From a virus (lineage: Duplodnaviria > Caudoviricetes), in IMG/VR virus record IMGVR_UViG_3300025129_000005: 64,000 nt of DNA, one strand, 5' to 3'. Shown one piece after another: positions 31,346-54,836 of the stretch (its first letter is position 1; each line of letters opens with the position of its first letter). The notes under the pieces are model-generated. The model did no database searches. It saw nothing but the letters and a program-made list of their open reading frames with translations, and was not told the DNA's origin. Position numbers and translations under genes: made by a program.

Positions 31346-32290
31346 ATGTCAATAAAAACAAAAAAAGGATTATCTGTGAATACTACTCCCTATGAATTTA
31401 AATACATGCCAAAATCATTTGAAGAAATGATTGTGTCGGAAGAACTCAAACCGGTTTTAAAGAAAGCACTTGATGAATTACCTAACATGATACTTAGCGG
31501 ACCTCCCGGTACAGGAAAAGGAACATTCGTCGATGTTCTCAGGTCAACACATCCTGATATAGATATCCTTAAGATTAATTGTTCGGATTATACGAGCATT
31601 GATGATGTTCGTGATAAAGTTAAACCATTTGCAACATCCATCGGTTTTGGTGCCCTTAAGATAGTTTTTCTTAATGAGGTTGATTATCTTTCGCACAACG
31701 GACAGGCTATGTTGCGTGATTTAATTGAACAGACACAAAAATACACCAGATTCATTTTGGCATGTAACTATCCCCATAAAATTATGGATGAAATGTTTTC
31801 TAGGTGTCAGCACGTGGAATTAAACAATCCGCCAGCAGTCGATGTTGTTAAACGTTGTTGGTCTATTCTTGACCAAGAAGGGGTTAAGTATAACAAAAAA
31901 ACTGTAGTTGAAATGGTCAAGTCTATATGGCAGAAAAAGCCCGATGTCCGTAATACATTGGTAACATTAAGAATGAATGTTATTGATGGTGTGTTACGAG
32001 ACAACTTTGTATTATCTGCATCAGAAGAGACGTATAAGGAAATCTTGGACGGATTATATAAAGGCGAATTGGATAAGATAAGGGCTATTCTAAAATCCAA
32101 TCCTATTGACTATACAAGTCTTTATATGTTTATATGTGATATATTATTTAATGATGATGAGAAGTTTAAAAACGCAGGTGTGGCGATAGAATTGGTTGGT
32201 GAACATGACTATCGCGATAATATGGTAGCTAACAGGGAGATAAACTTTATAAGTATGTGTGTGAAAATGATGAGAGGTGGTGCGGTATGA
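31346..32290 (+). CDS. gp44: Clamp loader large subunit (gp44/RFC-like)
   Basis: KY.P, GPPGTGK, LNEVDYL, RFILACNY, SRC. Confidence 0.92.
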   Translation: MSIKTKKGLSVNTTPYEFKYMPKSFEEMIVSEELKPVLKKALDELPNMILSGPPGTGKGTFVDVLRSTHPDIDILKINCSDYTSIDDVRDKVKPFATSIGFGALKIVFLNEVDYLSHNGQAMLRDLIEQTQKYTRFILACNYPHKIMDEMFSRCQHVELNNPPAVDVVKRCWSILDQEGVKYNKKTVVEMVKSIWQKKPDVRNTLVTLRMNVIDGVLRDNFVLSASEETYKEILDGLYKGELDKIRAILKSNPIDYTSLYMFICDILFNDDEKFKNAGVAIELVGEHDYRDNMVANREINFISMCVKMMRGGAV

Positions 32291-32481
32291 AATCAAAAAA
32301 GAGGTATGACAATCAAAAGAAAAAGAACTTTGAAGTGACTCCTGATATCTTAAAAAAGCTACAAGATTCTTTGAATGATAACATAAAACCAGATTTCAAG
32401 GAGAAAACTGATGATAAAAAGAAAGTCCCCAACAAAAAAAGGAAACCATCTAACAGAGGTGTTGAACGCAATAAACACTAA
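32287..32481 (+). CDS. Small basic hypothetical protein
   Basis: ATG at 32287 overlaps the gp44 stop. Confidence 0.5.
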   Translation: MKSKKRYDNQKKKNFEVTPDILKKLQDSLNDNIKPDFKEKTDDKKKVPNKKRKPSNRGVERNKH

Positions 32482-32770
32482 AACCCCTTGTAATTATAAT
32501 CCGAAAGAGGTTAGTGCATGGGTTATCTCATTGTTTCTGTCAGAAGATCCAGAACTTATTGAAATTGTTAATAAAATAAATCAATATCATTTTTCCCTTG
32601 ACGATAAACTAATATTCCGGTATTATGTATCAAAGATTCCAAAAAAGAAGAGATTTATTAAATTTACAAAAAAATCCAAGGAATCAAAAGATAATGAGAA
32701 AGTTAAATCTCTCATGGAAACTTACGGAGTCTCAAAAAGAGAAGCACTTCTTTCAATAGGGAAAGGGTAG
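32411..32770 (+). CDS. gp62: Clamp loader small subunit (gp62-like)
   Basis: LNAIN.K, V..IN.Y, RFIKF.KK, YGVS.REA; follows gp44. Confidence 0.7.
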   Translation: MIKRKSPTKKGNHLTEVLNAINTKTPCNYNPKEVSAWVISLFLSEDPELIEIVNKINQYHFSLDDKLIFRYYVSKIPKKKRFIKFTKKSKESKDNEKVKSLMETYGVSKREALLSIGKG

Positions 32771-32774
32771 AACT

Positions 32775-33104
32775 ATGTCAGAAAAAAAGAGTGATGTTGT
32801 TATGAGTCAAGGGGTTGATGTATCAGAAGAAGAACTTATGTCGAAGATTAATCGAACATCGAGTAAGCTTAAGAAAGTTTTGTATTTAGAAGAGTTTATG
32901 AGTGCTTTTTTGGCGTGTGCATTTGGTCTTAATGTAGCATGTTTTATGTTCAATCCCATAGGGTTAAGTATTATTAATATACTGTTGGCAATATGGTTCT
33001 TGTCTCATTTCAAAACAACAGTTTTACGACAAGAAAAATACCACTTACATCTGAAACTTCTTGAAAATTTTAAGGAGAATAAAGTTTGGATTGAGTGCGA
33101 TTAA
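32775..33104 (+). CDS. Two-TM hypothetical membrane protein
   Basis: Two hydrophobic stretches. Confidence 0.6.
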   Translation: MSEKKSDVVMSQGVDVSEEELMSKINRTSSKLKKVLYLEEFMSAFLACAFGLNVACFMFNPIGLSIINILLAIWFLSHFKTTVLRQEKYHLHLKLLENFKENKVWIECD

Positions 33105-33122
33105 AAATAAAGGGATATATAT

Positions 33123-33860
33123 ATGAATATTAATGTAAATAATTTACAAGAATTGATCAAAAAAGCGACATTGAACTATGTGATTCCCTCTGTTCACTTG
33201 AACATTCAAAGAGATAGAGTGATATCAAAAATGAGAAGTCAGGGGAACTCTGTTGTTATTTCATTGGATCTTCCTAATGATGTAGTTACGGAATTGCCAG
33301 ATGAAGTGGATTTATATTTTGATGAGCCAAATGTAAATGTTAAACCATACTTGAACCTGATTGATAATGATGTTGTTGATCTAAGTGTTAATACTGCAGG
33401 GATTGTACTAAAAGCTGGTAGACATAAAACAGACCTGTTTTTTTGTATGCCAAGCACTGTTACAACGTTCACCGGAAATACTCCAAACATTCAGCCATTC
33501 TATGAATTAGAATTGACCAATGAACTCAAAAGTAATTTTGATAAAATTCGTAAAATTGCTGGTAAATTTGAAGTTGTCTACTTTACAGTTTGTGATAATA
33601 AGTTTATAATTGAAACAACTGACAGATCTAACAGATTTATGAATGGGATTAGTTTTGAACTTGCAACCATTAATGTTTCTAATTGTGATATTTGTTTGGA
33701 TTATAAGAATTTTAATGCTCTTTTGCAGGTTATTGATGATAATTTTACGAATTTTAAGGTAAAATTTGTATGGATGGATTCACAAGAATCTGGTATGGTA
33801 TCATTTGAAAGAAACGATGGCAGAGAAAATTACTATCTTTTACAGAAATCAGAAGATTGA
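33123..33860 (+). CDS. gp45: Sliding clamp (gp45-like)
   Basis: Size, beta-rich duplicated pattern and position next to the clamp loader. Confidence 0.7.
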   Translation: MNINVNNLQELIKKATLNYVIPSVHLNIQRDRVISKMRSQGNSVVISLDLPNDVVTELPDEVDLYFDEPNVNVKPYLNLIDNDVVDLSVNTAGIVLKAGRHKTDLFFCMPSTVTTFTGNTPNIQPFYELELTNELKSNFDKIRKIAGKFEVVYFTVCDNKFIIETTDRSNRFMNGISFELATINVSNCDICLDYKNFNALLQVIDDNFTNFKVKFVWMDSQESGMVSFERNDGRENYYLLQKSED

Positions 33861-34395
33861 TATCGAGATTGAAAGGAAAAGTATGAACATATTCAAATGG
33901 GTACATGAAAGGATTGATAATTGGCTCCATAAAGAGGAAAGTGAAATCATTTTTGGTGTCAAAAAAATTCAGGATTCAAATCTTGATCTACAAAGTAAAC
34001 AAGAGAAAGAATTTCAAGATGCCCTTAAAGCTGAAATTGAATTGATTTCAAAAGAAGATCACAGTGTGATTCCAACCAAGGGTGATATTGATCGTTACTA
34101 CGCATATCATGTAAATTTTGTAACAAACATCAAGAAACTCGAAAAATATTTTAATATAAATATTCCAACCGAAATCCCATTGGATATAGTTGAATTTGAT
34201 GATTATTACAAAAAATCGGTCACAGAAGGATGGGAATACCTTCGTAAATCGTGTGGTCTTCCGTTAACGAATCCGTTGGGTCATGGCTTATGGAATGCAT
34301 CGAAAAAAGAAAACGTTTGGACGGTTGATGATACCGAACAAAAATGGACAACAGAGTCTAGCAATAAATCAACTTACCATAAACGTGGAATGTGA
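33766..34395 (+). CDS. Hypothetical protein (true start probably downstream, ~33882)
   Basis: ORF track. Confidence 0.6.
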   Translation: MYGWIHKNLVWYHLKETMAEKITIFYRNQKIDIEIERKSMNIFKWVHERIDNWLHKEESEIIFGVKKIQDSNLDLQSKQEKEFQDALKAEIELISKEDHSVIPTKGDIDRYYAYHVNFVTNIKKLEKYFNINIPTEIPLDIVEFDDYYKKSVTEGWEYLRKSCGLPLTNPLGHGLWNASKKENVWTVDDTEQKWTTESSNKSTYHKRGM

Positions 34396-34403
34396 AAAAA
34401 GTG

Positions 34404-34432
34404 TTGACATACCGAGGACGAGTTGATAATAT
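34404..34432 (+). promoter_or_regulatory. sigma70-like promoter for the Ubl gene
   Basis: TTGACA-17-TAATAT. Confidence 0.7.
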
Positions 34433-34509
34433 GTTCCTGTCTTAAGCGAAACAATAATTTTTATCCTCATGGTGAGGAAATTCACACTTCTCTTGAAAGG
34501 AGATTTAAT

Positions 34510-34728
34510 ATGACTGAAAGTACTACTCTTACCATTAATGGTTCCACCAACACTATCGAAGCCGGTTCTTCTTTTCGCGATACTGTTGTTAACGCTGCAC
34601 GTAACGCAGGTCTTGGCAAGTTCCGGGTTATTCTGAACGGTTCTGAAATTGATCCTGCAGATGCACCAGAATCCCTTAACCCCAGCATGTCTCTGGAAAT
34701 TCGCCCTTATGAAGTGGCTGGTGCTTAA
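34510..34728 (+). CDS. Ubiquitin-like (beta-grasp) protein, 72 aa, C-terminus ...YEVAGA
   Basis: SD AGGAG; beta-beta-alpha-beta-beta pattern (TLTING.TNTIE, helix, FRVILNGSEI, LEIRPY); Gly near the C-terminus; adjacent to E1 and JAB. Confidence 0.75.
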   Translation: MTESTTLTINGSTNTIEAGSSFRDTVVNAARNAGLGKFRVILNGSEIDPADAPESLNPSMSLEIRPYEVAGA

Positions 34729-34748
34729 CCGAGTATAACCATTTAATC

Positions 34749-34780
34749 GAGTTGGGTCAATCAAGACCCAACTCTTCTTT
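34749..34780 (+). terminator. Rho-independent terminator after Ubl
   Basis: GAGTTGGGTC-AATCAA-GACCCAACTC followed by TTCTTT. Confidence 0.8.
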
Positions 34781-34799
34781 ATAATTTTAAACTTTACTG

Positions 34800-34828
34800 T
34801 TGACAATCCCAATCATTAAATATAAGAT
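34800..34828 (+). promoter_or_regulatory. sigma70-like promoter for the E2-like gene
   Basis: TTGACA-17-TAAGAT. Confidence 0.7.
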
Positions 34829-34863
34829 GTTCATATCGGTTTGATTTACAGAAAGGAATTAAA

Positions 34864-35769
34864 ATGGCAGTGTGGGATGTGAATATCGCTGAATCGATTA
34901 AAAGTGACATAGATTCAGTATTGGATGATATCAATATTGATAATATTAAATCCGAGGGTATGACCGTTCGTATCGGTGGTAGACTTGTTAAATTAGAATT
35001 CACCGAAGAAACTTCTCTCCCGGAAGATGAAATTAGGGCTGAATATTCAGCAAAACTTACTGAAAAACTTCAAGCCATAAAAAATGTTGTTAATAAAAAG
35101 ATCTCTGAAATGTCTTATATGGTTGAACAGAATCGTATTGATTTTGAGGAAAAAGAGCGAAATCTTCAAGTACGCTTGTCTAGTGCAAACTTGATGCCGG
35201 ATATCACGTATGAACAAGCAAAAGCCGGACTGTCCGTGGTCAAGGGTCACCCAAGTTACAGAGAAAATGATGTTTTAACTTGGTTATATCAAGGTGTTTA
35301 TTGGCCAAAATTTGTTGATGGTGAGCCGATTGATCCGAAATATGCAAAACGTCTCGTTTCTCCGGTAACACTGGTAATTGTTACTGTTAAAGATAAAGTT
35401 CGTTCTGTAACGGTTTGTAAAACAATCGGTCTTTCCAAATTTAAACATTATCATTCAATGGGTAATAGTTCGGATTGTTGGGGTCAATGGAAAATCCCGT
35501 CAAATTGGTCTGAACCTAAAGATATTCTATCTATTGCCCGCCATGCTATGGGGGTTCTGGAAAACGTTAATACTCAGTCTCCGGGTAATCGTAACCCGGA
35601 TGGTCTTCCCCGACTGAATACTTTGTCACAACACGTTCTTAGGGGTGAAGCAGCTGTTAACGTTGAATATGTGACTTCACAATCCGATGATAGGGCTGGT
35701 ATTGATCGTAACACTGACAGGGGTGATCAAGGAACTCGCGGTTCGGTAGGTCAAGTCTGGTCAACATAA
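34864..35769 (+). CDS. Coiled-coil plus prokaryotic E2-like domain
   Basis: HYH...(N)SSDCWG resembles the E2 HPN...G.ICL/CWG active-site flap; context between Ubl and E1. Confidence 0.55.
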   Translation: MAVWDVNIAESIKSDIDSVLDDINIDNIKSEGMTVRIGGRLVKLEFTEETSLPEDEIRAEYSAKLTEKLQAIKNVVNKKISEMSYMVEQNRIDFEEKERNLQVRLSSANLMPDITYEQAKAGLSVVKGHPSYRENDVLTWLYQGVYWPKFVDGEPIDPKYAKRLVSPVTLVIVTVKDKVRSVTVCKTIGLSKFKHYHSMGNSSDCWGQWKIPSNWSEPKDILSIARHAMGVLENVNTQSPGNRNPDGLPRLNTLSQHVLRGEAAVNVEYVTSQSDDRAGIDRNTDRGDQGTRGSVGQVWST

Positions 35770-35777
35770 TTTCAAAA

Positions 35778-35805
35778 AAAAGAGGGTTTGAAAAGACCCT
35801 CTTTT
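35778..35805. terminator. Terminator-like hairpin after the E2-like gene
   Basis: AAAAGAGGGT/ACCCTCTTTT flanked by A and T runs. Confidence 0.7.
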
Positions 35806-35842
35806 AATTTCAGAACCTCTCCGATGGATGGTCAAAAAGTGA

Positions 35843-35871
35843 TTGACATATAAAAATTTGTGTGGTAGTTT
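35843..35871 (+). promoter_or_regulatory. sigma70-like promoter for E1-JAB
   Basis: TTGACA-17-TAGTTT with TG upstream of the -10. Confidence 0.6.
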
Positions 35872-35907
35872 AGCATTATCTTTGGGCATAAAAGAAAGGA
35901 ATTTATT

Positions 35908-36498
35908 ATGAGTTTTTATGATCGGCAGGATTTGATTGATGGTATTAATAACAAAATTAAAGTTTGTGTAATCGGGGCTGGCGGTATCGGTTTTCATGTC
36001 GCTAAAGGTCTTGCAATGTCAGGTGTCGAAACAATTTATGTTTTTGATCCTGATACCATCGAAGAATCAAACCTTAACCGTCTTGATGTAACAGTTGATG
36101 TTATTGGGAAAAATAAAGCTGATGTGGTCAAGCAGGTGGTAAAATCTCTTCGTCCGAACTGTATGGTCAAATCGTTTCCGTTTCCACTGAAAGATCATAC
36201 CTATCCTAAAGGTGTTGACTGGATTGTTGACTGTACTGATAATCATAAAAGTCAGTTAGAAAACCAACGTATGGCTCAAGAAAATGAAGCACGGTATCTT
36301 AAAGTGGGGTATGACGGGACCAGGATGTCGATCAATGATCGAGTCGCAACATGGGATTCAGGAGAAACCCAAGATGGGTATCGTATAACCCCGAGTTGGG
36401 CACCACCAGCTATCATCGTTGCGTATCTGGGTGTGGCCAAAATCCTCAAATATCACAATGGCGAAATGGGTTGCGATTTATCAGAAATATATCGATAA
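35908..36498 (+). CDS. ThiF/MoeB-family E1-like adenylating enzyme (minimal; no Zn motifs)
   Basis: YDRQ, VIGAGGIG, DPDTIEESNLNR, G..K, VDCTD. Confidence 0.93.
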   Translation: MSFYDRQDLIDGINNKIKVCVIGAGGIGFHVAKGLAMSGVETIYVFDPDTIEESNLNRLDVTVDVIGKNKADVVKQVVKSLRPNCMVKSFPFPLKDHTYPKGVDWIVDCTDNHKSQLENQRMAQENEARYLKVGYDGTRMSINDRVATWDSGETQDGYRITPSWAPPAIIVAYLGVAKILKYHNGEMGCDLSEIYR

Positions 36499-36514
36499 TA
36501 AATTGTGAGGTATT

Positions 36515-37603
36515 ATGGGGAAGAAAAGAAAATTAAAAAAAAAACTAAAAAAGCATAAGAAGGGATTTTATATGTTTGGTATTAAAGAAAATAAAGCACT
36601 TGAACTTATTTCAGATAAAGACTTTGATGATCTGATCAAACTCCATGATAAGGGCGGGGCATTTAACGTAAAAGAATCTAAATTCAATTGTTGGGATTCG
36701 GGTATTAAGATCATCAAAACTTGCGGTCATATAAATGTGTCTAAGTATCACATCGAATTTCACCTTCTTGCACATAAAAAAATTGAAAAATTAAAGAAAG
36801 TTTATCCTAATTTGGAATGGTTGGCGTACTTGGTTGGATCTGTTGACCACGATAATCATAAAGTATCTGTTACTGACTTGGTTATTCCTGATTCTCAAAA
36901 GGTTACCGGCACTAGCGTTTATAACGTTGAATATAATTGGGAATCCTTGGCTGATAATAAAGTTATAATTGGTGTTATCCATAGTCATAATACCATGGGA
37001 GCATTCTTCTCAGGGACAGATGATGCTTATATCAACCAAAATCATGACGTATCAATTGTGGTCTCTACTGCTGCAGGTCGTGAAATCAAAGCGCAAGTCA
37101 GGGTTAAAACTCTTTGTAATTCTTACATTCTTGCCGAAAACATTGAGTTTTCAGTAAAATACCCCCAACTTTTTGATGAAAGTGAATTTGAGTCCGAACT
37201 TTCAGAGAAAATAATTTCTCATTCTTCAATTAGTAGCTGTAGAGGTATTATAGGTCGAAGCTTTTTGAATAATTTCACTGGTTATGATACCGAAAACAAT
37301 GATTTTCTTGATCTTGAAGAACTTGAATATGAATATCCCGAAAAAATGACCAAACTAGATATTCGTGATGAACTTCTTTTCTATTATGAAGAAGAAGATG
37401 TTGATGAGATGATTAGAGATGGATCAGCTGTCAATGAACTTAAAATTATTCGTAAAAAAGTAAAAGAGAATTCGGATAAAGGCTTTTTGGATCAAGAGGA
37501 TGGCTGGTCTTCGGTAGACTTTGAAGAAGAATTTGAAGAAGACGAGGATGAGGACGAAGATTACGAATTTGATGATAAATTTGATTATTTTAAGTTGTTG
37601 TAG
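36515..37603 (+). CDS. JAB/MPN+ metallopeptidase (deubiquitinase-like) with acidic tail
   Basis: LEWLAYL.G, IP.SQ.VTG, GVIHSH.TM.AFFSGTDD. Confidence 0.9.
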   Translation: MGKKRKLKKKLKKHKKGFYMFGIKENKALELISDKDFDDLIKLHDKGGAFNVKESKFNCWDSGIKIIKTCGHINVSKYHIEFHLLAHKKIEKLKKVYPNLEWLAYLVGSVDHDNHKVSVTDLVIPDSQKVTGTSVYNVEYNWESLADNKVIIGVIHSHNTMGAFFSGTDDAYINQNHDVSIVVSTAAGREIKAQVRVKTLCNSYILAENIEFSVKYPQLFDESEFESELSEKIISHSSISSCRGIIGRSFLNNFTGYDTENNDFLDLEELEYEYPEKMTKLDIRDELLFYYEEEDVDEMIRDGSAVNELKIIRKKVKENSDKGFLDQEDGWSSVDFEEEFEEDEDEDEDYEFDDKFDYFKLL

Positions 37604-37652
37604 ATGATTTCATAGATAAGACTCAAGAATATAAAAATCCTCCGATGTAATT

Positions 37653-37686
37653 GGAGTATTAACTTAAAGGTTAGTACTCCTTTTTT
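37653..37686 (+). terminator. Terminator after JAB
   Basis: GGAGTATTAAC/GTTAGTACTCC followed by T6. Confidence 0.75.
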
Positions 37687-37707
37687 ATATAAATATATAT
37701 ATGCTTA

Positions 37708-38022
37708 ATGGAGGTTACTATGAGTGTCATTAAAAAAATATGGGAGTTCTTCATTCCTTTACTATCCGAGAGAAATGATAAAGGTGAATATAAACGAGCA
37801 TCTTTAGGTAGAATCTCGTTCTGGATCGTGTTTGGTATAGCAATTTGGATCTGGATAGCAGGAACGGGTGATATTCAAGCATCACATTTACAAATGCTTT
37901 ACATTACAGCTACCTATAATCTCATGAAAAAAGCATCATGGTTTAATAGGTCAGATCTTTCTGCGGGACCAGATGCAAAAAATTATAGTGATCCTTATAA
38001 TGATAGATCTCCAAGAATCTAA
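37708..38022 (+). CDS. Putative holin
   Basis: SLGRI.FW plus TM segments; late promoter at 37688; precedes the spanin-like pair. Confidence 0.55.
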   Translation: MEVTMSVIKKIWEFFIPLLSERNDKGEYKRASLGRISFWIVFGIAIWIWIAGTGDIQASHLQMLYITATYNLMKKASWFNRSDLSAGPDAKNYSDPYNDRSPRI

Positions 38023-38031
38023 GGAGTTAAT

Positions 38032-38457
38032 ATGTGGACAACAATACTGACTATAATTAAAAGACCAACAGTGGTCGCCATAATTGTGTTGCTTTTGTTA
38101 TGCGGAACATTATACATTAATAACGCTAGACAGGATGTTAAAATTGCGGAATTGGGCACTAAAATCGCAAAAATAGAATTAAATTATTCTACTTGTAAAA
38201 CCAGTAAATCTACACTACAAGAAGCTATCAACGTTTGTAATGGTCAGTCTGATGCTTGGGTTGCAAGTAATGATGCTCTAAGAGAACAGATAACCAAATG
38301 TTACGATGAAGTTGCTTATTGGCAAAATTTATATGATAACAAAATCTGTTTCACTAATGAAGACGAAACCCCTGTTGTCCCCTCTCAGGGTAAGGTGGTC
38401 AATGATGTTAAAAGTTCCGAAGCTGTTCATCGTATTAACATTATTTTTGGGGATTAA
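38032..38457 (+). CDS. Putative i-spanin (Rz-like)
   Basis: N-terminal TM anchor followed by coiled coil. Confidence 0.65.
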   Translation: MWTTILTIIKRPTVVAIIVLLLLCGTLYINNARQDVKIAELGTKIAKIELNYSTCKTSKSTLQEAINVCNGQSDAWVASNDALREQITKCYDEVAYWQNLYDNKICFTNEDETPVVPSQGKVVNDVKSSEAVHRINIIFGD

Positions 38458-38713
38458 TGGATGTGGTTGGTTTTCCAAACCTGAACCTGAAATTGTTACA
38501 AAAATATCATATATTTACGTATATAATAAATGTCCTATACCAAAAGTACCAGAATATACAAAGCTTGATAATTCTAGTCATATAGGAAGTGCTTTTAATA
38601 TAAATATTCTTGTAGGAAATGTAGAAAAAATGAAATCCTATAATAAAAGTTTGTTGGGGTCATTGGAGTGTTATGACAAACAAACCAAGGAGATAAATAA
38701 TGATAGACATTGA
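38402..38713 (+). CDS. Putative o-spanin lipoprotein (Rz1-like)
   Basis: Lipobox ING-C, Pro-rich segment CPIP..P, overlaps the i-spanin 3' end. Confidence 0.7.
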   Translation: MMLKVPKLFIVLTLFLGINGCGWFSKPEPEIVTKISYIYVYNKCPIPKVPEYTKLDNSSHIGSAFNINILVGNVEKMKSYNKSLLGSLECYDKQTKEINNDRH

Positions 38714-38958
38714 TTTATTAGTTGAAAGATATATAATAGATGCTAATATTTATTCGGGGAATAAAACTCCGATGTCCAGAGTAGAAGCTTTGAGTGAGTA
38801 GATTGGAAAAATCAAAAGACAAAGATGAAATGGGGTTTCTTGTCAGAGTTGCTAGTTTTGCCGGTGCGACTCGACATGAACTAGAAGATGCTCTTAATGG
38901 TAGAAAATATAATTTCTATACAGCAGATATCAACAAAGAAAAGCGATGGAGATGGTGA
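38700..38958 (+). pseudogene. Small gene disrupted by a 4-bp tandem duplication (GAGT at 38792-38799)
   Basis: Removing one GAGT fuses MIDIDLLVE...EAL to SRLEKSKD...RWRW. Confidence 0.5.
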
Positions 38959-39173
38959 TGAATAACATATTAGATCGAATTAATGATAAACTGGATGAGA
39001 TGGCAAAAGGAGATTTTGCTGGATGGGTTGCTATGTATGGTGGTAAGCGCATTGAAATTACCAAAGATCAAGCAACAGATTTATATGGAGCAAAACAGCT
39101 TGCTATCAAACAGTTAAAAGTTCCCAAATCAAAACAAGGTCTTTTAGCTATAAAGCTGGGTTATGAAGAATAA
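38946..39173 (+). CDS. Hypothetical protein
   Basis: ORF track; translationally coupled. Confidence 0.65.
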   Translation: MEMVMNNILDRINDKLDEMAKGDFAGWVAMYGGKRIEITKDQATDLYGAKQLAIKQLKVPKSKQGLLAIKLGYEE

Positions 39174-39559
39174 TGAGATTTGAACGATACATAAACGAAG
39201 GTGATGGTGATTTTGACTTAAATAAACGTATCGTTTTTTCATGGAAAGGTCATAAGGTAGTTAATACCGAGCATGGTAAGCAACGCATCAAACAACGTAG
39301 TGATATTACGGACTTTCAAATGTTGACAATGTTCAAAAATGCTATTAAGAAGATTGAAAGTAAATCCGTAAAGATAGGGGAAAAAATTGTTTTTTGGTCT
39401 AAAACATTAGGACAAGCTTTTATAGCAAAGATAGATGATGTTAAGGATTTGATATTACTTACGTTCTTTCCGAGACACAAGAAACCGAGTGGAGTAAATG
39501 ATCCATATCAACGAGAAGTTGTTATAGAAGGCGAACATTTAAGAATAGTGGAGATATGA
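39173..39559 (+). CDS. Hypothetical protein
   Basis: N-terminus MRFERYINE. Confidence 0.7.
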   Translation: MRFERYINEGDGDFDLNKRIVFSWKGHKVVNTEHGKQRIKQRSDITDFQMLTMFKNAIKKIESKSVKIGEKIVFWSKTLGQAFIAKIDDVKDLILLTFFPRHKKPSGVNDPYQREVVIEGEHLRIVEI

Positions 39560-40263
39560 AATTAATGAGGCTTGAGCAGTATATAACCGAAAGCATTAAC
39601 GATAAGGGTATTTTCAAGGCCATATTCATGGCAGGTTCGCCGGGATCAGGAAAGTCGTTTGTAAGAAAAAAATTGTCAGGTGGGTATGAACCCAGAGTCG
39701 TAAATACCGATAAATTCACAGAATTCTTCGGGGGGTGGAATGGTTTTAGTGAGAAGATAAAACTTCTTAATAATAATCAATTATTGTTATATTTAAATTC
39801 TATGTTACCTCTTTGGATTGACGGAACTTCTGGTAATAGAAACAATCTCATGACAAGAGAAGGTCTTTTGTCAGGGATGGGATACGATACTGGTATGATA
39901 TGGGTCAATACTGACCTTGACGAAGCAGTTAAGAGGGCACAGGAGCGCGAAGCCCATGGCGGTAGACATGTTGATATCCCTTGGTTAAAAGAAACTTACG
40001 AAAAAATTCAGAAGATGAAATCATTCTATATGACTCGTTTTCAATGGTTCTTAGAGGTTGACAATAATACTGGACAATTAACTGATGAAGTGGTACAAAA
40101 TCTATACTCAAAAACACTTCCATTTTTTGGGGGACCAGTGAAAAACCCACATGGGCAAGAAATTATAAATACTTTAAAAGAGATGGGTGGAAAATACCTT
40201 ACGGATATGGAAGAATATGATATGAAGTTTATTCAAAATAGAACAAAAGCGTGGTTTACGTGA
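39556..40263 (+). CDS. P-loop kinase (AAA_33/zeta-toxin-like)
   Basis: KAIFMAGSPGSGKS, VN.D, IDGTS, A..RA..R..RGGR-like segment. Confidence 0.8.
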   Translation: MKLMRLEQYITESINDKGIFKAIFMAGSPGSGKSFVRKKLSGGYEPRVVNTDKFTEFFGGWNGFSEKIKLLNNNQLLLYLNSMLPLWIDGTSGNRNNLMTREGLLSGMGYDTGMIWVNTDLDEAVKRAQEREAHGGRHVDIPWLKETYEKIQKMKSFYMTRFQWFLEVDNNTGQLTDEVVQNLYSKTLPFFGGPVKNPHGQEIINTLKEMGGKYLTDMEEYDMKFIQNRTKAWFT

Positions 40264-41099
40264 TGAAAAAGTTCTACGATAAATTAAATGAGGCGACAAC
40301 TCTATCTTCCGGTGGATATACTAATCCCGGTGATGGATCTGGTATTACAGGTGATGATGATCTTCCTACTGGTACGACTGTGTTTGGTGATAAAATGGTG
40401 CCTGTTGTTGTAAATAATCGATTAACAGGTAAAACCATAAAGTATGTACCAGCCGAGGATCTAGGTCAAGGGTGGAATTATGATGAATTTGAAAATTCAT
40501 CTGGTATGGGATCAATAAAAGGGTATTCAACGACACTCTTAGGTTTAAGAGAATTATTAGGGAAAAGGTTGTTTAAACATGCCCAAAAAGAGAAACTTAA
40601 GATGCAGACTGATAAATGGGATAAGCGTTCAGGGGATCAAGATGATAGCGGTACTAATCAAACAGCAAAGATCAGTGATGATGATCCTTCAAAAATAGAA
40701 TTATCTAAGGGTGGAACTGAAAGTGAAATTAAGAATGAAAAACCCGAAACAAATGATCATTGGAGAGAAGTGCCTATGAAACATATTGGCGATTTAGACA
40801 TAATGGAGAAAATTAACAATTACTTAGGGGAACCCGAAGAGATGGTTAATGAGGTGGTTGCTGATGCGAATGACAGGAAATTATTAGCACAAGCTATCAT
40901 AAAAGGCAAGAACACAAAGATAAGTATTAAGAGTTTAGGTGTTCAGGCGATTGTGACCAATTCTGAGGCTGAAACTATTGTAACATACCAAAAAAATGAA
41001 GATTTTACTCTAATTTTAGTGGATATTGCTGATACTTTGGGCATGGAATTTAAATTAACCAAAGATGGTGGAAAACAAGCTTTCCGTTTAATAAAATAA
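40251..41099 (+). CDS. Hypothetical protein
   Basis: N-terminus MKKFYDKLNE. Confidence 0.7.
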   Translation: MVYVMKKFYDKLNEATTLSSGGYTNPGDGSGITGDDDLPTGTTVFGDKMVPVVVNNRLTGKTIKYVPAEDLGQGWNYDEFENSSGMGSIKGYSTTLLGLRELLGKRLFKHAQKEKLKMQTDKWDKRSGDQDDSGTNQTAKISDDDPSKIELSKGGTESEIKNEKPETNDHWREVPMKHIGDLDIMEKINNYLGEPEEMVNEVVADANDRKLLAQAIIKGKNTKISIKSLGVQAIVTNSEAETIVTYQKNEDFTLILVDIADTLGMEFKLTKDGGKQAFRLIK

Positions 41100-53340: not shown

Positions 53341-53874
53341 ATGAACGCGAAAAAAACAGCCAGACGTAAAGCAATTCTTGATGGGATTATGGAATCACTA
53401 AAACATGATGAGGTTTTTGACCGTGTAAAATACAAACAAAAGACCGAATCAGAACTACAAAACCGTATGGCAGTACCTTTGAATAGAACTGTTGCAAAAC
53501 TGTTCGAGGAATATAAGGGTTATAACCATGACCGTGCTGTATCAGAGGCACGTGTGAGATTTGCAAGTGAGGAAGATCCGAATACAACAGTCAAAAACTT
53601 TATGTTCATGGGGGTACAACATCGCCCAGACTTCACTATAGATTTTGATGATATTCGTATCGCAGTTGAAATCAAAAAAGGTCATTCAGGTCAATCAGTC
53701 CGTGAATGTATTGGTCAATCCGTGGTATACAACACAAATTATGATTTTACATGTGTTTTATACGTGGATACCTCCGCCGATGAGCGTATTAAAAACTCCC
53801 TTAACGGTGAGCGTGAGAAAGAATTGATTGAATCTCTTTGGAAAAATCATAATGTAATGTTGGACGTTATTTAA
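53341..53874 (+). CDS. PD-(D/E)XK-like nuclease-domain protein
   Basis: HRPDFTI...IAVEIKKG...IGQ..VY. Confidence 0.6.
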   Translation: MNAKKTARRKAILDGIMESLKHDEVFDRVKYKQKTESELQNRMAVPLNRTVAKLFEEYKGYNHDRAVSEARVRFASEEDPNTTVKNFMFMGVQHRPDFTIDFDDIRIAVEIKKGHSGQSVRECIGQSVVYNTNYDFTCVLYVDTSADERIKNSLNGEREKELIESLWKNHNVMLDVI

Positions 53875-54836
53875 TGACAAGTTTATGGGAAGACGTGTTC
53901 GATCAACCTGAACCAGAAATCGAGAAAGTGTCTATTGTTCCAAAGGATGAGCATGTTAATATTCTCAAGCGAATGGACGATTACGAAAAAAATCATTGCT
54001 GGCAGTATGATATAAGACTTAAAAATATGGAACAAGACTTAATTGATGTCGGATTAACCAAGGAGATTACAGATAACTTACGAGTATCAGATTTTGAATT
54101 TCGCTTTGTTGAGGATAAAAAAGAACGACAAAAATTAATTGAGTTTATAAAAAGACATGAGTGGTTAGGGAATCTATCACAATTCACCACGCATTGGTTT
54201 GGTGCATATTATAACGACATTCTATCAGGTGTCGTATTGATGAATATGCCTAATGCGTTTTCTAATGTTGTTGGTGAAAACACAAAAAACCTTGAGAGAC
54301 TGATAAGCAGGGGTGCCTGTATTTCATGGAGTCCCAAAAACTTAGCATCCTCTATGTTGATGTGGTGTATTAATTGGATGGTTGCTAATACCAGATACCG
54401 TGTATTTTCGGCATACTCCGATCCAACAGCTAAAGAACTCGGAACGATTTATCAAGCATGTAATTTCTATTACATAGGACAAAAATCTGGTACCACAAAA
54501 AGATATGTGAATCCTTTCACTGGCAGGCTCGTATCTGACCGATTTTTTAGGGCAAGGAGCGCATATAAGCAGTATGCTAAACAATTGGGGATTGAATGGC
54601 AGAAAAACTGGAACAATGATCAATCAATACTGTGGCATAATATGCCTAAAGAAATAGAACAACAATTAAGACAGCAATCCAAGAAAATGCAATCAGAAGC
54701 AAAATATTTTACATTTCCTCCTAAACATAAGTACATATATATCAAAGGAAAGACAAAAAAAGAAGATAAAATGCTTAAGACTATCTTTATGGAGAAAACA
54801 AAGGTCTATGATTACCCCAAAAAAAGGGGAAATTAA
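53874..54836 (+). CDS. mom: Mom-like (GNAT-fold) DNA adenine modification protein
   Basis: FI..H.WL, LISRG, PKN.AS, AYSDP...LGTIYQACNF.YIG. Confidence 0.7.
   Translation: MTSLWEDVFDQPEPEIEKVSIVPKDEHVNILKRMDDYEKNHCWQYDIRLKNMEQDLIDVGLTKEITDNLRVSDFEFRFVEDKKERQKLIEFIKRHEWLGNLSQFTTHWFGAYYNDILSGVVLMNMPNAFSNVVGENTKNLERLISRGACISWSPKNLASSMLMWCINWMVANTRYRVFSAYSDPTAKELGTIYQACNFYYIGQKSGTTKRYVNPFTGRLVSDRFFRARSAYKQYAKQLGIEWQKNWNNDQSILWHNMPKEIEQQLRQQSKKMQSEAKYFTFPPKHKYIYIKGKTKKEDKMLKTIFMEKTKVYDYPKKRGN

Follow-up and report, generated by a model that had tools for sequence, protein, structure and literature searches.

An invariant tyrosine at the usual crossover-loop cysteine site of a minimal E1-like protein in a ubiquitin-like gene cassette of T4-like phages

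To our knowledge, before the work on Bub a catalytic cysteine was thought to be necessary for every E1 that activates a ubiquitin-like protein (Ubl). Two related bacterial systems, Bil and Cap2 of CBASS, are directed against phages. Bub (bacterial ubiquitination-like, formerly 6E/DUF6527) is described for BubCD of Citrobacter (PDB 9ea5) and for a Type II BubBD (Ye, Gong, Chambers and Corbett 2024, PMC11601596). A tyrosine, Y370 in BubCD and Y342 in BubBD, is the only invariant residue of the crossover loop, and the substitutions Y370F and Y342F abolish conjugation in the respective protein (PMC11601596). The covalent tyrosine adduct was inferred from these Y-to-F mutants and never directly observed, and an adduct between BubA and BubCD still formed with Y370F (PMC11601596). 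A preliminary description of the DNA analysed here had said that Bub pathways reportedly run via oxyester intermediates, which is correct (PMC11601596). The E1 of Bil contains an inactive and an active adenylation domain plus a mobile Cys domain (PMC11601596).

Bub homologues were also recovered in the present analysis. A Type II Bub operon, with a fusion of DUF6791 and ThiF beside a DUF6527 gene, was found in a genome (G318) of the phylum to which the Izimaplasma HR2 MAG belongs (centre G001). At this locus (L015, G318:C4:78000-94000) the operon adjoins a Shedu (SduA) gene and a gene for a HEPN-domain protein and is part of a defence island; a multiubiquitin gene was not recognised in the adjacent 98-aa ORF. 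In addition, 127 homologues are plasmid-borne and flanked by 'multiubiquitin' and DUF6527 genes. A DUF6527 match in a further genome (G071) was rejected as a Bub operon, being a lone small gene. Seven Type II BubBD proteins, from G318 and from plasmids of four phyla, have one invariant loop tyrosine in the pattern D-D-x-Y-[AS]-x-N-I-Q.

The window, that is, the whole 64-kb stretch of viral DNA analysed here, has a GC content of about 35% and is the replication region of a T4-like phage, with PHROGs matches to ribonucleotide reductase, gp43-type DNA polymerase, gp41-type helicase, primase, gp32-type SSB and exonuclease. The large subunit of the clamp loader is encoded at 31346-32290 (an AAA/RFC-type ORF whose orthologues in related loci match PF00004 and Gp44_lid) and the small subunit at 32411-32770 (a Phage_clamp_A match). 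A 245-aa ORF at 33123-33860 takes the place expected of the gp45 sliding clamp, with the clamp-loader genes on one side and the Ubl cassette on the other; it has no Pfam or PHROG family match, and its length is kept at about 245-248 aa in related loci. Directly downstream of the clamp region, four separate ORFs on the same strand encode a Ubl, an E2-like protein, an E1 and a JAB peptidase. When the DNA of this cassette was compared by blastn with 50,697 phage records, no match was found. No description of a Ubl/E2/E1/JAB system in T4-like phages was found in the literature searched, an absence that is in itself no proof. Elsewhere in the window, the ORF at 53874-54836 encodes a Mom-like DNA-modification protein (PHROG 1384, E 1e-17), and the one at 39556-40263 a Zeta-toxin/AAA_33-type kinase-like protein, which is also kept downstream of the cassette in a related locus (L004).

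The first gene of the cassette (34510..34728, plus strand, with AAAGGAG before the ATG) encodes a putative ThiS/MoaD-like Ubl of 72 aa ending in ...RPYEVAG-A, and its conserved VAG end places the predicted mature C-terminus at Gly71 (34720-34722, plus strand). In 27 orthologues (loci L023-L057) the protein ends in [YF][DE]VAG followed by 0-5 extra residues: none, or A, SK, F, R, T, I, LV, RANR, NVNP or LERGF, the extra alanine of the present Ubl being encoded at 34723-34725. Since some Ubls end at the glycine and others carry tails, only part of these phages would need a peptidase for maturation, and the tailed forms are predicted from their sequence to be trimmed to the C-terminal Gly. The Ubl is colinear with E. 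coli ThiS, but the hhalign match is non-significant (E 0.32). It has no Pfam match; in its nearest clusters of the ESM Atlas, 10-17% of the members are annotated with PF02597 (ThiS). The last gene (36515..37603, plus strand) encodes a JAB/JAMM metallopeptidase of 362 aa, which matches Prok-JAB of Pfam (E 3.8e-8) and PRTRC_A of NCBIfam (E 1.8e-8, below the cut-off) and has an intact H-S-H-x7-S-x-x-D motif at 36980-37021. Its N-terminus is Lys-rich (MGKKRKLKKKLKKHKKG) and its C-terminal tail long and acidic; the orthologue in L001 (6591-8177) has 528 aa, with many CxxC zinc-ribbon-like repeats in a C-terminal extension.

The E1 gene (35908..36498, plus strand) encodes 196 aa, which by Pfam, fold and motifs comprise only a ThiF/MoeB adenylation domain, with neither a Zn site nor a CYS domain. 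The match to PF00899 (ThiF) reaches E 3.4e-26 and 92 bits against a cut-off of 28, and the GxGxxG motif is present as GAGGIG at residues 23-28. R6, Q7, G23xG25G26xG28, D47, D49, N55, N57, R58, K70, D108 and D111 are invariant in 93-120 homologues and match, in hhalign, the MoeB/ThiF motifs: the Arg finger of YxRQ, GxGGxG, NxxR, the lysine and DxxD. Both the Rossmann-type fold and the residues for ATP/Mg binding and adenylation are present, and the protein belongs to the superfamily of ThiF/MoeB/E1 adenylation domains.

The AlphaFold model of the E1 has a pLDDT of 91.8, with values below 50 in the crossover loop (residues 149-159). The preliminary description had proposed superposing such a model on MoeB and on BubD. 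On MoeB (1jw9_B, residues 6-233) 190 of the 196 residues were superposed with an rmsd of 2.4 A and Z 22.5 (VIA). Since the model is confident and this superposition extends over nearly the full length, the phage E1 is, as modelled, an adenylation domain that is complete, though its loops are shortened and its C-terminus is truncated. The structural Z was 21.6 for UBA5, 19.2 for BubCD (rank 13) and 17.5 for the Bil E1 (8tyz_A), and UBA5 (6h78) is the top match in Foldseek. The Cap2 (E1-E2) models of PADLOC match the protein at 1e-16, and a search for longer or fused relatives found only MoeZ-like ThiF-rhodanese proteins.

In the region with GYDG (residues 134-137) the sequence reads ...KVGYDGTRMSINDRVATWDSGETQDGYRITPSWAPPAIIVAYLGVAKILKYHNGEMGCDLSEIYR. 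The only cysteines of the protein are residues 20, 85, 109 and 189; none is found in residues 110-188, so that no Cys stands between GYDG and C189, which lies past the last helix, and CxxC is absent throughout the 196 aa. The sequence thus agrees with the preliminary description, which had noted neither CxxC pairs nor a Cys before the final helix and whose quoted stretch only omits T138. C189 was dropped as a candidate nucleophile, since no more than 51 of the 120 close homologues have it. The same description had stated that ThiF and MoeB usually carry CxxC motifs and a loop Cys, and both E. coli proteins do (NC_000913.3): MoeB has CxxC at 172/244 and loop Cys187, and ThiF has CxxC at 169/240 and loop Cys184. 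The structural Zn site made of two CxxC pairs, which is usual though not universal in the superfamily, is absent from the phage E1. A canonical thioester E1 has a Cys in the crossover loop or in an inserted domain; the phage protein has neither, and Tyr158 is found at the site.

The crossover loop (DRVATWDSGETQDGYRITPSW, 36337..36399, plus strand) is short and is marked by the dip in pLDDT and by conservation in the family; Tyr158 is the TAT codon at 36379-36381. A profile of only the loop and C-terminus gave nothing but chance matches among PDB sequences, and residue equivalence was therefore taken from hhalign. With the family profile, and W149 and P167 as anchors, Tyr158 aligns on N183 of ThiF, beside Cys184, and the claim that a Tyr lies at the usual site of the loop Cys therefore holds to within one residue. 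The first CxxC of ThiF corresponds to a 6-residue deletion in the phage E1, and the chain stops before the second. ThiF was aligned throughout; the global alignment with MoeB as a single sequence fails past residue 149.

Global and local profile-profile alignments (hhalign) with the E1 domains of the seven BubBD proteins put Tyr158 on their invariant tyrosine with a probability of 97-98%, although these loops may be pulled together by the tyrosine and the neighbouring acidic residues themselves. In these alignments the Tyr columns of the phage E1 and of Bub coincide. Structurally, the phage E1 is no closer to BubCD than to MoeB, UBA5 or UBA3. For this reason, the tyrosine shared with Bub could be convergent. 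BubCD was not among the best 60 matches of PDB sequence searches with the whole E1, either as single sequence or as profile, and appeared only in a wide structural search. The E1 domain of Type II BubBD itself, when searched against the PDB with phmmer, gave an alignment with BubCD that ended at residue 313.

Tyr158 is present in all 120 close homologues, which reach down to 47% identity and are all about 195 aa long; the same holds for W149, G157, S163 and P167. The objection, raised in advance, that the tyrosine might not be conserved in homologues therefore fails. A profile search of 1.84 billion representatives extended the family to 211 clusters (50% identity) at E < 1e-30, with 3,498 matches at E < 1e-10, and the loop was surveyed in the query and the best 150 clusters, 146 sequences being full length. 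The pattern G-Y-x3-P-S-W, with the loop Tyr, occurs in 138 of the 146. The remaining eight read x-C-G-[VET]-[TIV]-[IV]-P-[SAQ]-W, that is, they have a Cys one residue upstream and no Tyr. All 146 have at least one of the two residues, and among the Tyr types this 7-residue stretch is always free of Cys. The conservation of the loop Tyr is far beyond chance.

Trees were computed without the loop columns, with MoeB/ThiF as the root. The Cys types fall into two neighbouring clades (FastTree) or a single clade (IQ-TREE quick, support 69), and both trees nest them among the Tyr types (SH-aLRT 90 in IQ-TREE). The exchange between Tyr and Cys is therefore one or two evolutionary events, not many. As the backbone of the trees is unresolved, an ancestral Tyr and a derived Cys would be only the parsimonious reading. 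Two loci with Cys-type E1s (QCGVTIPSW; L008, 5001-5753, and L010, 1155-1757) keep a JAB and an E2-like protein with HYH..DCWG or DCTG and a C-terminal Trp; no Gly-terminated Ubl gene was found beside the E2 in either. Around the E1 of L008 there are small Cys-rich ORFs, one of 100 aa with two CxxC pairs and one of 62 aa ending in ...GVKEC, and its neighbours are TelA and Band_7 genes, not replication genes.

The E2-like protein (34864..35769, plus strand, 301 aa) consists of a long N-terminal helix (residues 54-107), a UBC-like core (about 106-258) and a disordered tail. The CWG motif pointed out in the preliminary description was found within HYHSMGNSSDCWG at residues 195-207. It belongs to a putative active site, HYH-x7-DCWG (35446..35484, plus strand, with the Cys205 codon at 35476-35478), and the whole motif F-x-H-Y-H-x7-D-C-W-G is invariant in 64 homologues. 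Y196, H197, C205, W206 and G207 are invariant and C205 is the sole conserved Cys in the two sets of homologues examined (64 and 49). The sequence has no match in Pfam (at E up to 1), NCBIfam or the PDB, including a PDB profile search with the E2-like alignment. Its model has a pLDDT of 78; the best 50 matches of the core in VIA are all UBC E2s, with a moderate Z of 6.1-6.8 over about 120 aligned residues, and the top Foldseek matches are E2s as well, but weak (E 0.08-0.5). These models give moderate support to a UBC-fold E2. In a distant branch of high GC content (57%; L059, 747-1976), the E2-like protein has 409 aa, and its gene is found beside a Tyr-type E1 and a JAB. Its active site, PHVNRSGSCMSIG, has the motif L-P-H-V-N-R-S-G-S-C-M-S-I-G, which is nearer to the canonical eukaryotic HPN...C than HYH..DCWG is. 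The disordered tail is rich in Gly, Asp and Arg and has an invariant Trp 2-4 residues from the C-terminus (Trp299, 35758-35760), in variants such as VWST, FWSA, VVWS, VWKT and ETWAA, and kept in the distant branches (L008, L010, L059). Possibly the E1 or the JAB docks at this Trp.

The cassette is found beside clamp genes in 30-odd viral contigs, and it lies downstream of them in five metagenomic loci (L001-L005) fetched via E1 homologues. A profile search found the E2-like gene in 35 viral contigs of IMG/VR, with the E1 close downstream in 26, and in most related loci a JAB follows the E1. One viral lineage (L047, which is G402, and L058) has a split cassette: the Ubl and the E2-like gene stand together and the E1 about 20 kb away on the same 97-kb contig, apparently on the opposite strand. 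In fragments related to this lineage (L033-35, L038, L046, L048) no E1 was found in the DNA fetched or the records searched. In the contig JRFF01000039.1 (27,887 bp), which NCBI lists under 'Candidatus Izimaplasma bacterium HR2', GIY-YIG homing-endonuclease genes are inserted between the Ubl and E2 and between the E1 and JAB (L004, 4241-4861 and 6573-7283; L027). An IMG/VR viral contig of equal length has the same cassette at matching coordinates, so this sequence probably comes from a phage and was placed in the MAG by binning.

Homology supports an E1 that would adenylate the Gly-terminated, ThiS-like Ubl and work together with a JAB and a UBC-like protein that carries a Cys. For the next step the preliminary description had offered two options, an oxyester on the E1 Tyr or direct transfer to the E2 Cys. 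As a pair they are supported, and the evidence leans towards the tyrosine intermediate, given the invariance of Tyr158, its alignment with Cys184 of ThiF and the Bub Tyr, and the adjacent Cys in all eight Tyr-less members. In our judgement there is an even chance that the Ubl goes from the adenylate to an oxyester on Tyr158, from there to a thioester on Cys205, and then to the target. By homology to ThiF/MoeB/E1, and with its adenylation site complete, the E1 would bind ATP/Mg; the JAB would remove the extra alanine where present, and the E1 would then adenylate Gly71 of the Ubl. The hydroxyl of Tyr158, on the short and mobile crossover loop, could attack the Ubl-adenylate and give a Ubl~Tyr aryl oxyester, which would replace the E1~Ubl thioester. 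The loop might then swing to the E2-like protein and pass the Ubl to Cys205 as a thioester, and Cys205 might hand it to a lysine of a phage or host target; the JAB might also undo the tagging. Phenolic esters are activated acyl donors, better ones than Ser esters, and an O-to-S transfer from Tyr to a thiol is therefore plausible.

The main alternative, possible though rather unlikely, is that the E1 only adenylates and that Cys205 of the docked E2-like protein attacks the Ubl-adenylate directly, Tyr158 serving to clamp the Ubl tail, gate the site or dock the E2. Cys205 is invariant and the only conserved Cys in the system, and some E1-like enzymes, MoeB among them, adenylate with no covalent enzyme intermediate (Iyer et al. 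2006, PMC1779556). Furthermore, with about 10 residues from W149 to Y158 the loop is very short and its swing limited, and the persistence of the Bub covalent adduct with Y370F (PMC11601596) is in line with such a role. However, a steric or stacking role leaves unexplained why the Tyr-less members have an adjacent Cys and not Phe, Trp or His, and Tyr158 falls in the column of the essential Bub Tyr and beside the ThiF Cys. This strict pattern of Tyr or adjacent Cys, together with the co-alignment with the ThiF Cys and the Bub Tyr, makes up the strongest arguments that Tyr158 may be the nucleophile. A sulfur-carrier or acyl-adenylate pathway of the ThiS/ThiF, MoaD/MoeB or CysO/Mec type, with a Ubl thiocarboxylate, a persulfide relay on the Cys and product release by the JAB, would agree with the likeness of the Ubl to ThiS, with best NCBIfam matches of the E1 to ThiF/MoeB models (all far below cut-offs) and with an E2 assignment that comes only from a moderate fold match (Z 6-7), but it is very improbable, because no ThiG, MoaE, rhodanese or cysteine synthase genes occur near the cassette in the window, while the 50 best fold matches of the partner are all UBC E2s, the distant branch has the HPN-like PHVN...GSC motif, and Ubl, E2, E1 and JAB together are the signature of a conjugation operon (PMC1779556; PMC11601596).

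A broader reading, which we hold tentatively and at somewhat less than an even chance, is that T4-like phages run their own Ubl cascade, from a Ubl~Tyr oxyester on a minimal E1 to a Cys E2, and that Tyr and Cys are interchangeable as the E1 nucleophile within one family. If this is true, oxyester chemistry in E1s would be no oddity of Bub but widespread, and possibly ancestral for this clade. With its 211 clusters the family would add a second set of Tyr-E1s, much larger than the first, and its wiring would be unlike that of Bub, from a Tyr E1 to a Cys E2 in an unfused, phage-borne cassette. It would also mean a private phage tagging system acting on host or phage proteins during infection, for instance in counter-defence. 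The presence of a Ubl cassette beside the replication genes of lytic-type T4-like phages raises the question of what the phage tags. The Tyr types and the natural Cys revertants or variants clearly lend themselves to paired experiments, and the E1 is an attractive minimal model for E1 chemistry because it has 196 aa, no zinc and no extra domains.

ThiF and MoeB are the best whole-length structural matches of the phage E1, with the adenylation motifs in common and, for the phage, a putatively ThiS-like substrate. The phage system differs from them in that its E1 has neither of the CxxC Zn motifs nor the loop Cys, and in being linked to an E2-like protein and a JAB, not to sulfur-transfer genes. 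UBA5, the minimal homodimeric eukaryotic E1, and Cap2 of CBASS are likewise compact and have the catalytic residue in the crossover loop itself, but both use a Cys where the phage E1 has a Tyr; in addition, Cap2 is an E2-E1 fusion and conjugates the cyclase rather than a Ubl. Bil (BilABCD, operon type 6d of Iyer et al. 2006) has separate genes for Ubl, Cys E2, E1 and JAB, as the phage has with its E2-like protein, and its JAB trims or deconjugates. However, the E1 of the phage consists of one domain and has no Cys domain, and Bil is a host defence system, whereas this cassette is phage-borne.

The likeness to Bub lies in an adenylation domain with no catalytic Cys, in which a single invariant Tyr follows acidic residues towards the C-terminal end of the loop, and in a set of Ubl, E2 (E2-like in the phage), E1 and peptidase on a mobile genome in both systems. 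The differences are several. The E2-like protein of the phage has an invariant Cys where the E2 of Bub has a Ser with His/Asp or Lys/His; the phage proteins are all separate, in contrast with the Ubl-E2, JAB-E1 or E2-E1 fusions of Bub; the phage E1 has 196 aa and a loop of about 16 residues, compared with 31 in BubCD; the phage Ubl is a putative single beta-grasp domain; and the phage system is found on a lytic-type T4-like phage, Bub in a bacterial defence island. PF20137 (DUF6527, BubE) was not detected in the four cassette proteins and 11 flanking ORFs (32411-41099), and, as the E2-like protein has no Pfam match at all, it has no match to the DUF6791 of the N-terminus of Type II BubBD either. 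The phage system therefore has the Cys-less loop with an invariant Tyr that is typical of Bub, and lacks its Ser E2, a nearby DUF6527 gene and fusions. The route proposed here would be a hybrid of the chemistry of Bub, Tyr then Ser, and the canonical one, Cys then Cys.
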